Assembly: GCA_964016885.1 (NCBI GenBank)
Contig: OZ024743.1
Span: 197,904,001 to 197,968,000 of the forward strand
Length of the DNA: 64,000 nt
Source of the DNA: Eledone cirrhosa
Taxonomy: Eukaryota
Reading direction: 5' to 3'
Shown one piece after another: positions 25,600-63,232 of this stretch (its first letter is position 1; each line of letters starts with the position of its first letter). The notes beneath the pieces were generated by a model, which was given only the letters and a program-made list of their open reading frames with translations, had not been told where the DNA came from and made no database searches. Position numbers and translations under genes: made by a program.

Positions 25600-25976
25600 T
25601 AAAATAAAAGTTTAAGCAAAGAATCGCTACTTTCACCCTTAACGGGATCTTCTGAAACTAACAAAGTCAATCTGTAAACGCAGAAGTGGATATTTCAAAA
25701 AACGTTGCAACCGGAGGAAGACAGGAAGACGATACTTTGGTTCGTGGAAACGTTCCCTGGCAAAGAACGGGAAAAAACGAATATAATACGTCATTATTTG
25801 GAGCAGTGAAAATCAATTTCCACAAACCAAAGTATCGTCTTCCTGTCTTCCTCCGCTTGCAACGTTTTTCGAAATATTCACTTCTGCGTTCACAGATTGA
25901 CTTTGTTAGTTTCAGAAGATCCCGTTAAGGGTGAAAGCAGCGATTCTTTGCTTAAACGTTAATCTGTTATTTTAAT
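25600..25976. mobile_element. Fold-back non-autonomous Penelope-type fragment with two HHR-like motifs (CAGAAGA family)
   Basis: 25606-25745 inverted at ~25820-25970; motifs at 25609-25659(-) and 25909-25957(+); (TA)n on both sides; family also at 24690-24850, 52452-52886 and 55672-56170. Confidence 0.7.
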
Positions 25977-26944
25977 ATATATATATATATATATATATAT
26001 ATATATATATATATATATATATATATATATATATATATATATATATATATATATATATATATATGTATGTATAGCTGTCGAAACGGCCGGAGCTCAGCCG
26101 TCGTGGTCCTGACTCTTACTCTATTACCCACTCTACTATCCTAAGTATTGAGTGCTCTGGTGGTTATGGGCCATCTGGTATCTTACAACACCCTCTCTGT
26201 TATATATATATATATATATATATATATATATATATATATATATATAGAGAGAGAGAGAGAGAGAGAGACAGACAGAGAATATATTAAATTTCATTGGTTT
26301 TGGGGTGCAGTTATGGCCACACTAAATATTGCGGGAGATTCTTTTAAACTGACCCCCTCATCGGGTACGAGGACAAATTTGCCCAAAGATGGGTCAGTTT
26401 AGAAGAGCCTCTTCCAATATACAGCGGTGGCTATAACAGGACCCCGAAACAAACGTCTCAAATACATGTTAAGTGTATGGAACTTTATTTATATAAAACA
26501 AGTATTCTTGCAATGGATTGAGCATTGTTTTCCTTGATCTTTCATCTACTGATATACCACACACACACACACACACACACACACACACACACACACACAC
26601 ACACACACACACACACACACACACGCTTACACACTGACACACACACACAGATATATATATATATATATATATATATATATATATATATATAGATCTTAGT
26701 TAGGTGTGTAACAACAGTTACAGTTGGAGCGCCGTTATGTGCCATTACACATATAAGCTTGTATATCTGATGAGATGTAAAAGAGTCGGGCCCCGTCACC
26801 TTCATTGTACCTTATAACTTATAATATGCAAATACAGTTTGTACATATGGTGCAACACTGACTCTTTTAAATCTCTCTCTCCCCCTCTCTCTTCCTCTCT
26901 CCCCCTCTCTCTCTACACACACAAATATATATATATATATTTTT

Positions 26945-27680
26945 TCTAGGGCGAGTAAAATTCCCGAGATCCATGGACGAGTTCTCTCCAGCGGTCTGTG
27001 TCCCTCATTATCGCTGCCATGTCCTGCGTCTCCAACAGACCAGTGTCTGTCCTTAGGGCATCAACATACGTTAAGGTTGGTCTTCCAGTTCCAGTGTGTC
27101 CATGTAGGGGCTCCTACATGAGCACTGAGTGCAATGTCAACTCTGGATGTCGGTGAGCATGTCCAGCTAACCTCAGTCTCCTCTGTGTCACTTTTGAGCT
27201 GACTTTTGGGAGGCTCCCATACAGCTCTGAGTCTTTCATCCTCAGTGTATACTGATTAATGTTCAGAGCCATCCTCAGCATTTTCGTGTAGCACCCATCC
27301 ACCATCTGAGTGAGTTTCCTGGTCAGTGTCCAAGTCTCAGACCCATACAGCTGCACATACTCCACTACAGCAATGAAGAGGGGTCTTTACGAAGGGCCGA
27401 CTTCCACACCAATCTCAAGCTGTGGCACGCCACCCAGGCTTTGTTCTTCCTCTCACCCACCCCATCTTCCTTATTACTAATCTTTGCTCCCAAATACAGG
27501 AAGTCCTCAATCAGTTCTAGCGGCTTCCCGCCTACATTAGTGATCCCCTCTGGCTTCTCAACATTCTCTACCAGGTATTTTGTTTTAGACTCATTCATTC
27601 TCAGCCCCACACTCATCGACACAGTCTCAACCTCCTGTATCAAATCCTCTGTCTCCTTCACTGTATTTGTTACCAAAACA
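26945..27680 (-). mobile_element. RTE-clade LINE 3' fragment
   Basis: VGLRMNESKTKY, EDFLYLGA, LYGSETWTLT, RRLRLAGH motifs; internal deletion. Confidence 0.85.
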
Positions 27681-27878
27681 TATATATATATATATATATA
27701 TATATATATATATATATATATATATACATATATTTTGAGTTTATGTTGGTTGTATACCAACACCTCAGTATGCAGGCTGGAGCACTCGACGAAGTGCGCA
27801 GGTTGGTTTGGTTACTCCGGAGTAGTGTAAAATAAAGTTAAATAAAAGTAAAATGATTAAAATTTAGCTTCGTTTATT

Positions 27879-27933
27879 ACTGCTATATATATTTCAGTGA
27901 CAGCCATCTTTGGCTGTGACCTCTTCAGGCAGT
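27879..27933 (-). ncRNA. Type I hammerhead ribozyme
   Basis: Inverted copy of 28142-28196. Confidence 0.8.
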
Positions 27934-60723: not shown

Positions 60724-61270
60724 TGATGACTGCCTCCTCGTTATCGAGTATGGCCATTGCATGATATACCATTATTAATAATTATTAATTAATTCTATCG
60801 TGCAATGCCTGTTCGTGAAGATATTTTTTAAAGTGACGAAAGACTGTGCACTGAGCCAATCCCACTCTCTGAGCGACAGTAGCTATAACCCGAAAAGAAG
60901 AAAAGATCAACATCATCGGTAACTACTGAGCTGCAGGTTTTATATCGGAGTTATCCTGGTTTCCTGAGTTGCCTTCTCCTAGAAAATTGCCCTGACAAAG
61001 TCTAGGGGTTCTTCACTCCCAGTGGTTTAACCACGCGGTACATGTGTATATACATATTTACACACTTTCGGATGGCCGTTGACACTTATGAGTTCTTCCC
61101 CCACCCCCCTTTGTCAGGTTTTGTGTTTTGTCCTGCAGGGTGTCAAAAATCACCCTCCTCACCAAGTAAACTTGGTGGGGTTGCCGGTTTAGTCGCCGAC
61201 GACCCGACCATGCGACATGTTGTACTGGGTTACATGTTACCAGTAGCACTCAAGAGTGACACGGCATAAC
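60724..61270 (-). mobile_element. Probable non-coding RTE-associated short retroelement between (TACA)n tracts
   Basis: GC-richer non-coding block with terminal stem ctcg-ttat-cgag, flanked by acatacatacat on both sides. Confidence 0.35.
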
Positions 61271-61320
61271 ATACATACATACATATATACATACATACAT
61301 ATATACATACATACATACAT

Positions 61321-62905
61321 TGGATGATAGAGGCCCTCCAACTTGCTAAAGTCCCAGACATTATTGTCAGAGCCATAGAGAGGCTGTCTTCTTCTTGGGC
61401 TACTATCCTTAGGTTAAAGACAGAGTGGGAGGACTCTATTTTCAATGATAAAATAAAATATCGCAGGGGTATATTTCAGGGAGACAGTCTCTCCGTGATA
61501 TTATTCATCCTGTTATTAAATCCCTTGTCTTTTCTGCTCAAGATATGTGAAGGATACATCATTGGCTCACAGGAGGACAGAAATACGAACCTAACCAATA
61601 ATTTCTTTGTGGATAATCTGAAACTCTATACCAAGAACATGAATGGGATGAAGAAAAATCCTGACCTTGTTACAACGTTCTCAAACGATATAGGAATGGA
61701 GTTTGGTCAAGATAAATGCTCGTATATTACTGTAAAGCGGGAAAAAAGAACAACACAATCTAGCAACATTGTCATCAATGGCCTAACTGTTTCACGGATA
61801 TCTGATGAGGACTGCTACAGATACCTGGGGATAGATGAGAACTTCATATCCTATAATGATATCTGTAATAAGGAACGCGTAACCAGGGAATATTACACCC
61901 GATTAAGAAATATTTGGTCATTTGGTGCCTGTTCTAACACCAACGTTTGGAATACTCAATTGGGCGATAGAGGAAATCCGAGCAGTTGATGTTGGAACTC
62001 GAAAAATACTGAACAACACAGGAAACTTCCACATCAACAGTGACATAGACCGCCTTTACTTGAAACGTAAGCAGGGAGGCAGATGCCTAACATCAGTCCA
62101 GACAAAATTTGAATGTCGCATCATATCCCTCCGACAACATCTACGAACCTCGAAACAGATAAGATCATGAGAGTTGGGAAGGAACTCCTCAAGAGATATT
62201 CCCTGTGTGATAATCAAAAACTCACACCCAGGTAAGTCGCTCAGCAGTACCGCAGTGAAACCATGGATGAAAAACTGCATGCTTATCAGCAAAAAATCAT
62301 GCATGGATATGTTGCCAGTTATGATAACACCTAGTTGTGATAACAAGTGCAGACTGTGCAGAACTAACATCGAAGATGTCACCCATGTCATCATCAGCTG
62401 TCCAAAGATGTCATTGCGGTACTATCTACCTATGAGGCATGATGTAGTGACCAAAACACTGTACAATGCAATGCGTAGAAAAGATAGCCCCGATAATAAA
62501 CACATTAAAAGCTACAGCAATGTGGAACACATCCATGTACATAATATGAAAGAGTACTGGTGGAATGTTCCAGTAAAAACCCCAATAAAATGCAGGCATA
62601 ACAGACTAGATATTATGATATGGGACAGGGAGGAGAAAGCATGCGCAGTGGTGGAAATTAGCTACCCATCAGATGCCAATATAATATCAAAGATTAGCGA
62701 AAAGGAGAATATTTATGCAGAACTGATGAGAAATCTGCAGATACTCCACCCTGATTACACCTTCAGATTTATGCCTGTGATTATTGGGGCACTGGGGTAT
62801 GTTAGTAACTGCCTCAATACAAATCTTGAGAAGCTAGGCTTCACAGGAATAGAAAGAACACAACTAGTTAGGAAATAACAAGTACAATCCATTAATGGAA
62901 CAGTA
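61321..62905 (+). mobile_element. R4/Dong-like (REL endonuclease) non-LTR retrotransposon, 5'-truncated and frameshifted
   Basis: RRGIFQGDSLS, FFVDNLKLY, YRYLGI, RLYLKRKQGGR, CRLC..EDVTHVIISC, RHD, RLDIMIWD..VVEIS. Confidence 0.88.
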
Positions 62906-63232
62906 AAAATAAACAAATAAATATATAAATAAGCAGACTAAATAAAGATGGCGTAGGCATACAATAGAACGGGAGGAAACATAATAGCACCACTGACGAT
63001 GTTGCAGATGTGCAACGAAAGAACTTTGTTAGACAATATATATATGTGTGTGTCTATATTGTATCTGTAATTTTGACCGTTGGTCAGTCAATGGTAAAAT
63101 TGAGGACCAAATAAATTAAATTAACCGATATAAAAGATACAGAAGCGAAAACCAACCAAACAGTGAGTGTGTTCTGTTATTAATTCTGGCAATATTATTA
63201 CACAAATATGACCCTCCCCAAGTATAACAATA
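62905..63232 (+). mobile_element. Penelope-type 3' end with HHR-like motif at 62989-63030
   Basis: acca CTGACGA tgttgca-gatg-tgcaac GAAA gaac TT tgtt; ends ccctccccaagtataacaa-(TA)n. Confidence 0.7.

Follow-up and report, generated by a model that had tools for sequence, protein, structure and literature searches.

According to the available part of Craig et al. (2021; PMC8557442 / 10.1101/2021.04.23.441226), all families of the Hydra clade of Penelope-like elements (PLEs) insert into (TA)n and carry hammerhead ribozymes, and the supplement table of that paper contains an octopus member, Hydra-1_Obim. For retrozymes, the accessible text of PMC7229834 proposes mobilisation by PLEs and gives up to 120,000 copies in axolotl. 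In Poseidon PAc of Anolis, the tail of an insertion is the stretch between two internal start sites of the reverse transcriptase (RT), both strands are cut and extended, and a dimer is predicted (PMC11167929). Here we describe a 64,000-nt stretch of Eledone cirrhosa DNA (contig OZ024743.1, positions 197904001-197968000; ‘the window’) from a microsatellite-rich genome of 3.0 Gb. Our reading, to which we assign a probability of about 0.68, is that the hammerheads of the window belong to the 3′ ends of PLEs inserting into (TA)n, and that each end of the Hydra-type elements lies a few bases 5′ of a bulged hairpin that likely binds the element protein and sets the start of reverse transcription.

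Hammerheads were searched with a descriptor for type I motifs with a palindromic or hairpin stem III, where strict motifs have a canonical core and three helices; families are named after their stem III sequence (e.g. the ‘ACTAGT family’). The strict descriptor returned 15 motifs in positions 25600-63100, compared with a mean of 0.005 and a maximum of 1 in 200 local dinucleotide shuffles of the same region. Because of inverted pairs and one tandem array, these 15 motifs correspond to eight insertion events. Matching family by family, with the ATAATTAT motif and the two ACAATTGT arms read separately, gave 11 families that together comprise 29 type I motifs with both core boxes; six 3′-half motifs were found in addition. 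The 14 two-box motifs beyond the strict ones have a variant or damaged box or helix. A first-pass annotation had counted about 25 motifs in about nine families, which agrees with this inventory, and the seven stem III sequences and the hairpin-type stems III that it named were all found in place. It had also called the families unrelated, which does not hold: two share Neptune-type termini and most of the others share the Hydra tail hairpin described below. Rfam reported no hammerhead at the gathering score in the window, and at E≤1 only AT-rich microRNA noise at four loci; its models exclude these short-stem variants.

Several families have fixed variant cores. The U3-A8 core was found in 31/31 copies of the Hydra element, and the accessible part of PMC4209133 already reports this variant in Schistosoma PLEs. 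The CAGAAGA family carries a U4A core in 44 of 47 copies, and the ACAATTGT family the core CCGAAGG. The CAGAAGA copy at 52817 is the only CUGA one and has a G at its cleavage position. Further families with a CCGAAGA (U4C) core occur at loci L181, L132 and L075; in the part of PMC3088659 at hand, the U4C core is known from a viroid. Dimer energies calculated for the palindromic stems III range from -2.6 to -10.5 kcal/mol, with AGAACU alone lacking a stable dimer. Minimal hammerheads of PLEs show weak cleavage in vitro (PMC4209133), and self-cleavage of the motifs described here is probably weak and dependent on a dimer or a protein.

Association with (TA)n was scored as a (TA)5 within 200 nt of the predicted cut, and motifs near piece edges were dropped (five in the flanking DNA, two in the sample). 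Downstream (TA)5 was present for 14/15 strict motifs of the window, compared with 2/15 upstream and a local expectation of 0.30 at random positions. The flanking 200 kb gave 21/27 downstream and 9 upstream. A genome-wide sample of 59 evenly spaced 10-kb pieces (590 kb; 39 of the 59 from the four largest chromosomes) gave 30/34 and 11/34, respectively. In all 32 of the family-matched motifs and halves of the window, (TA)5 follows the predicted cut at no more than 279 nt. The first-pass annotation had described the motifs as embedded in (TA)n. Nearness to the tracts is borne out, but the motifs themselves lie 10-280 nt upstream of (TA)n, inside the element ends. The 590-kb sample contains 36 motifs (one in a single shuffle), which extrapolates to a genome load of roughly 1.8x10^5 canonical-core motifs (bootstrap 1.1-2.7x10^5). 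Hammerhead density tracks TA content over the 59 pieces (Spearman 0.63), and the TA content of the window is three times the average. The window is a local peak of this genome-wide load: the neighbouring 200 kb contain 32 motifs, and the first 25.6 kb of the window none. The idea of a unique hotspot was rejected in part, with eight events in 37.5 kb giving P=0.027 by resampling of the 59 pieces.

One carrier in the window is a young, 5′-truncated Hydra-clade PLE. Its open reading frame (ORF) belongs to a young family in which the 76 scored copies show 98-100% identity and a frame of 784 codons is open in many of them. Intact ORFs contain the DKT motif, a modified DKG (SDKTGN in L012), YRDD, a CxCX5C linker and a C-terminal YIG-type endonuclease motif. 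Among 68 aligned homologous proteins, DKT is present in 62 and CxCX5C in 64, and CX2-5CxxC in none; Y593, Y606, G608, R617, H621 and E676 are invariant, and homologue P0001 has a GIY-YIG Pfam match. Sequence searches of Pfam and PDB did not recognise the Hydra ORF. The structure predicted for the 717-aa protein (mean predicted local distance difference test, pLDDT, 91.6) has TERT as its top Foldseek match (E 3.7e-8). By these motifs and the predicted TERT-like fold, the carrier ORF would be assigned to the Hydra clade. Same-strand Hydra-type ORFs also adjoin CAGAAGA hammerheads (L193, L194, L195, L202 and L204), ATATATAT hammerheads (L059, L071 and L080) and ACGATCGT-like hammerheads (L103 and L111). 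Most hammerhead families in the window are 3′ ends of Hydra-clade PLEs. At 20 ORF-anchored loci, the 30 ends of pseudo-long terminal repeats (pLTRs) comprise 21 that end in TA, 7 that read through, and 2 others that also run into TA-rich sequence.

Two other kinds of carrier were found. The two AGAACT families are the ends of elements with a CX4CxxC linker and a C-terminal YIGET motif. Among the loci listed, a CX4CxxC ORF precedes the AGAACT-a hammerhead in 9 of 11, and CIDKKCITC followed by YIGET occurs in 10 of 11. The AGAACT-a element has at least 96 copies in the genome. By motif content these families are of Neptune/Nematis type, a label that covers both clades. Their ORF is unusually long at L286, L292, L361 and L362, with 1,200-1,400 open codons and a low-complexity stretch rich in Gln, His and Thr after the N-terminus. 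The ACTAGT family is a non-LTR retrozyme that carries its own microsatellite. Its unit of about 480-500 bp occurs dispersed and in tandem, each unit containing a single hammerhead and a single (TA)n tract, and no PLE ORF was found in 30 loci. The core is intact in 131/132 unit reads, in which overlapping loci were counted more than once. The (TA)-rich spacer is identical between units in L036, L151 and L152 and in four of the five spacers of L038; this retrozyme is the only family in which (TA)n is demonstrably within the unit. Because ACTAGT arrays show the inverted copy and the two fixed ends of PLEs, they provide structural evidence for PLE-type mobilisation. A guild of TA-targeting PLEs with a ribozyme-bearing parasite, as suggested by the first-pass annotation, is supported, the non-coding parasite being the ACTAGT retrozyme; TA targeting by such a guild is published Hydra-clade behaviour (Craig et al. 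2021) and known biology. A second tandem retrozyme-like array, with a 310-bp unit, stem III ACGCGT and tandem plus inverted copies, lies about 55 kb upstream of the window (L144:9291-9953, L145:180-842).

All seven families tested end at one of two fixed points, either a short end or a tail end 58-98 nt further on. In 47/48 inverted insertions from these seven families, one end is short and the other is tailed. The tails of otherwise unalignable families share the pattern RCUC-inner stem-loop-inner stem-UN-GAGY-RC, a hairpin with a 2-nt bulge. In read-through copies of the Hydra element, the short end precedes hairpin 1 by 8 nt and the tail end precedes hairpin 2 by 6 nt, and the CAGAAGA family at L193 shows the same layout. 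End placement was also examined in a set of 77 Hydra-related loci from marine metagenomes. Of 45 loci examined, 26 had two alignable pLTR copies, 11 of these were dropped at contig edges, and 12 of the 15 left had a strict hairpin. In 10/12 loci the end falls -4 to +4 nt from the hairpin start; hairpin 1 accounts for four of these and the hairpin-2 position for six. A rough uniform null gives a P of about 4e-7 for this placement. In the three loci without a strict hairpin, the end precedes, by eye, variant-looking hairpins.

The hairpin is conserved in position and strand. A pattern scan of the 590-kb sample found 22 sites compared with 4.3 after shuffling, 18 of them with (TA)5 downstream. 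A covariance model built from 31 metagenomic hairpins and six from the window gave 33 matches in the same sample, with (TA)5 23-70 nt downstream in 31 and upstream in 4. In the 77 metagenomic loci, hammerheads number 60 in sense and 3 in antisense orientation; the corresponding counts for the hairpin are 76 and 10 (3.4 per strand when shuffled). Where there was room, the distance from the cut to the downstream hairpin is 36-69 nt in 34/52 hammerheads. Ahead of the 36 metagenomic ORFs with at least 150 nt upstream, strict copies number two in 18, one in 12 and none in 6, against a shuffled background of 0.007 per segment. Three published Hydra consensus sequences carry the hairpin, and Hydra-1_Ajap has it twice before the ATG; four hairpin 9-mers had three other occurrences in the 584,000-character supplement, none in hairpins, although line breaks may hide matches. 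Tail hairpins at 11892-11926 and 25473-25510 of the window, each followed by (TA)n and both outside the span given in the first-pass annotation, mark additional Hydra-type ends at which the hammerhead is missing or decayed.

Covariation was assessed on boxes picked by sequence alone, which avoids circularity; 3′ boxes without a matching 5′ box were set aside (11/88 in the metagenomes, 38/75 in this genome). Watson-Crick pairing at inner positions 1-3 was found in 76, 55 and 44 of the 77 sites from metagenomes, compared with permutation means of 40.6, 21.2 and 19.2 (maxima 53, 32 and 35). In this genome the corresponding counts are 32, 29 and 23 of 37 sites. Shifted stem registers collapse these counts, so that the 2-nt bulge register is strict. 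The outer pair of the hairpin varies between G-C and A-U.

A mechanism can be proposed from these observations. The element protein would cut both strands of a (TA)n tract. On the RNA, the hairpin would serve as a putative protein-binding site that places the RT just 5′ of it, and the two hairpins would serve two protomers at the two ends of one (TA)n cut, with one protomer starting complementary DNA (cDNA) synthesis 5′ of hairpin 1 and the other 5′ of hairpin 2. Each cDNA would be primed by one cut end through 1-4 nt of U/A pairing. Early termination of both cDNAs, followed by head-to-head joining, would yield an inverted insertion with one short and one tailed end. Each such insertion would leave (TA)n on both sides, so tracts would stay targets and could collect many families. 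The balance tips modestly towards a broader statement, namely that a clade-wide RNA hairpin, present twice per pLTR, recruits two telomerase-like RTs and fixes both cDNA starts. It would explain the Penelope tail and the short/tail rule, and would give a minimal template for a TA-targeted RNA-to-DNA writer.

Several points weigh against a protein-binding hairpin that sets the RT start, or against its reach. The ATAATTAT, ACCACTGGT, ATGCGCAT and ACAATTGT families showed no link to an ORF. Two of the 12 metagenomic loci misfit, three more have no strict hairpin, and several metagenomic loci are closely related and thus not all independent. The proposed fold is the minimum free energy (MFE) structure in 2/6 Hydra-type segments (z -0.1 to -3.1), and single hairpins are weak in such predictions. 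The outer stem is nearly invariant, with three of six pairs never varying, so the signal may partly be sequence and not structure. The short/tail rule also holds in Neptune-type elements (14/15 inverted pairs) and in the retrozyme (4/4) without the hairpin; it therefore does not need the hairpin, and these elements would require signals of their own. None of 14 covariance-model matches in 30 Neptune-type loci falls in the queried element ends, and the ACTAGT retrozyme has only a 13-bit match (E ~0.7), left unassigned, at the short end in 8 places and none at the second end. Poseidon PAc primes without target homology (PMC11167929), which differs from the microhomology in the present model. The proposed cleavage, binding and start sites are deduced from DNA, and the same end geometry would arise if the RNA were processed or the DNA trimmed at the hairpin.

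The hairpin could direct a cut of the RNA just 5′ of it, by a host RNase or the element protein, and so create two RNA 3′ ends for end-primed reverse transcription. Ends a few bases 5′ of each hairpin fit this equally well, and RNA-seq read ends at the start sites have been reported (PMC11167929). In PAc, the sole reconstituted PLE, product size is however constant whatever the 3′ length of the template (PMC11167929), so initiation there is internal. A cut at hairpin 1 would also lose the tail, whereas single insertions show both ends, and we consider RNA cutting unlikely. Strict adherence to the 2-nt bulge register, with counts that fall in slid controls, speaks against a role of the hairpin as DNA, in which the endonuclease would recognise it in a tandem cDNA or donor copy and trim the intermediate after reverse transcription. 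The same is true of G-U/U-G pairs on the sense strand, which number 7 and 3 at pairs 2 and 3 in the metagenomes and 2, 5 and 7 at pairs 1-3 in this genome, with almost no A-C; this fits a sense single strand better than antisense cDNA. Trimming of DNA is thus quite improbable in our view, even though the accessible part of Craig et al. 2021 (PMC8557442) ascribes the tail to endonuclease resolution and, as cited in PMC11167929, the D. virilis tail is required for endonuclease recognition. The hairpins might instead serve translation or packaging, as they precede the ATG by about 40 and 105 nt, a distance that is fixed in many loci; closeness to the ends would then merely reflect pLTR layout. 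This seems very improbable, since the end-to-hairpin distance (-4 to +4 nt) is tighter than the hairpin-to-ATG distances (34-69 and 78-149 nt) and ends use both hairpins.

The suggestion of the first-pass annotation that insertion may lengthen the targeted (TA)n tracts and that, in an intron, the ribozymes could cut host pre-mRNA appears doubtful. The correlation of hammerhead count with TA content is in its favour, as are the at least 46 of 304 tracts that abut an element end (from an incomplete end library) and the unit-by-unit copying of a (TA)-rich spacer by the retrozyme. However, abutting tracts are no longer than others (median 43 nt, n=46, versus 42 nt, n=258; p=0.65), so lengthening found no support; equal lengths would also follow from random splitting of length-biased targets. 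A Pfam scan of 87 of 377 candidate ORFs from 264 kb revealed no host exon, although short exons would be missed; the matches were transposon domains, except for one C2H2 frame and a weak TcpS match on an RT frame. The C2H2 zinc-finger frame (L159:4471-4833), about 94 kb downstream of the window, is the only possible host coding sequence seen. The hammerheads show no strand bias (11 + and 18 -, p=0.26), and in the accessible part of PMC4209133 single minimal hammerheads did not cleave in vitro. From the sequence, cleavage of host pre-mRNA looks unlikely for most copies.

Table 1. Positions of hammerheads, hairpins and element parts in the window
Feature	Position	Strand	Remarks
Young 5′-truncated Hydra-clade PLE in (TA)n	29290..32416	-	inverted pLTR tail (5′ side), ORF, 1.2-kb 3′ region, hammerhead, short end
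Open frame of Hydra element, 572 aa	30485..32203	-	intact copies elsewhere: 717 aa from ATG
Hammerhead of Hydra element, hairpin stem III	29298..29392	-	U3-A8 core; MFE fold has hammerhead topology
Tail hairpin 1 (ACUC-stem-UU-GAGU-AC), inverted pLTR copy of Hydra element	32344..32373	+	8 nt 3′ of short end
Inverted hammerhead pair, CAGAAGA family	25608..25959		U4A core; pLTR of second Hydra-type element; one arm 25907-25959
Further CAGAAGA copies	52472-52524, 52817-52869, 55783-55835	-, +, -	
Hammerhead 3′ half related to that of Hydra element	26066..26200	+	followed by tail hairpin 26130-26159
3′ halves related to that at 26066..26200	41640-41682, 60545-60587	+, -	
ATATATAT family inverted insertion	27741..28247		hammerheads 27878-27934 (-), 28141-28197 (+); left = tail end (hairpin 27778-27829, -), right = short end
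ATAATTAT hammerhead, long stem II	28365..28456	+	(TA)n 42 nt downstream
AGAACT-b hammerhead	28787..28832	-	GAAA box mutated; Neptune/Nematis-type pLTR
Further AGAACT-b copies	53372-53417, 62987-63032	-, +	first copy decayed
Neptune/Nematis-type ORF, C-terminal remnant	53693..53890	-	upstream of AGAACT-b hammerhead
ACCACTGGT hammerhead	32574..32643	-	canonical core; (TA)n 36 nt downstream
Second ACAATTGT family, 3′ half only	32786..32817	+	
ACGATCGT hammerhead	33642..33778	-	stem II ~95 nt; A9G in this copy
ACAGTTCTAG family, two decayed 3′ halves	34742..34827		inverted orientation
ATGCGCAT hammerhead	35267..35337	-	further copies 48517-48587 (-), 48708-48788 (+)
Tail hairpin of ATGCGCAT copy 48708-48788	48835-48865		
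AGAACT-a hammerhead	37056..37102	-	inverted pair 42068-42114 (-), 42469-42515 (+)
ACAATTGT family inverted insertion	40480..40853		core CCGAAGG; left = short end, right = tail end
Tail hairpin of ACAATTGT inverted insertion	40776-40806	+	
ACTAGT retrozyme cluster, tandem and inverted	48957..52418		~494-bp ORF-less unit; 7 hammerheads

The window also contains repeats of other kinds. TA targeting as a property special to hammerhead carriers was rejected, because 7/10 RTE-like 3′ ends and one Tc1 copy abut (TA)n; the habit therefore extends beyond hammerhead carriers. The RTE-like ends, from sampled DNA, show that a long interspersed element (LINE) other than Penelope shares the target, and within the window RTE-like LINE 3′ ends at 26925-27680 and 51146-51515 abut (TA)n. 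The Tc1-like transposon lies in a TA run at 53972-55390 and has terminal inverted repeats with DDE_3 and HTH_SB remnants. Ends of the abundant short interspersed element (SINE) have (TA)n in 3/79 cases in the sample and in 1/88. This SINE, which presumably resembles octopus SINEs, occurs in tandem at 19638-20216 (194-bp unit) and 9263-9755 (143-bp unit), and at other loci it is often found inside hammerhead-element ends. An array of a CAA-rich 52-bp unit with extreme strand skew covers about 2.2 kb (45364-47546), and broken PIF1 helicase frames at 14986-16375 are probably a Helitron remnant.

One PLE has been reconstituted so far, and the hairpin described here bears on how PLEs recognise their RNA, choose internal start sites and make tailed inverted insertions. 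It recurs in elements whose proteins share about 40% identity, lies beside both ends, and can be tested in a young family with intact ORFs. Since the protein is telomerase-like, a hairpin that fixes the template start could also be compared with the way in which telomerase-type enzymes read RNA. In addition, hammerheads on the order of 10^5 that are missed by Rfam seem to be present, together with a retrozyme that has a microsatellite in its unit. The accessible part of a repeat annotation of Octopus vulgaris makes no mention of hammerheads or ribozymes (PMC13282606). No description of the twin hairpin was found in Rfam or the literature, with Repbase entries, figures and subscription journals outside reach, and a word search of the supplements of PMC8557442 and PMC11167929 gave no hairpin description (for PMC8557442, hairpin 0 and stem-loop 0).

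Compared with the Hydra clade as presented in the available part of PMC8557442, the element of the window shares DKT, CxCX5C, a single ORF with a putative C-terminal endonuclease, a pLTR hammerhead, (TA)n insertion, and the inverted 5′-truncated copy with a one-sided tail. Tails are 30-40 nt in that text and 58-98 nt here; in this genome many families are young and abundant and fixed variant cores occur in several hammerheads. The twin hairpin goes unmentioned in that text. With the minimal hammerheads of metazoan PLEs (Cervera and De la Pena 2014, PMC4209133, as far as available), the motifs share type I topology, a palindromic stem III, a long stem II, many families per genome, opposite-strand pairs and the U3-A8 variant. 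The load of about 1.8x10^5 compares with about 9,000 in Xenopus, obtained with a different descriptor, and the family-wide U4A core was not found in that part of the paper. The AGAACT families resemble Neptune/Nematis in their RT, CX4CxxC linker, C-terminal YIGET endonuclease and microsatellite insertion. The ACTAGT unit agrees with non-LTR retrozymes, in the accessible texts of PMC7229834 and 10.64898/2026.07.22.740005, in consisting of tandem repeats that lack an ORF, span a few hundred bases and carry one type I hammerhead each, and is unlike them in having its own (TA)n, a PLE-type inverted copy and two fixed ends. PAc (Frangieh et al. 2024, PMC11167929) agrees with the mechanism proposed here in that two internal RT starts bound the tail, both strands are cut and extended, and a dimer is predicted. 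Its starts are located within the ORF of a single element, in an ‘AC-rich stem loop’, and the main text describes no clade-wide repeated motif; the hairpins described here are in the pLTR. Hammerheads in PLEs, (TA)n targeting by Hydra and retrozymes are already published; the twin hairpin is a new and testable cis-element.

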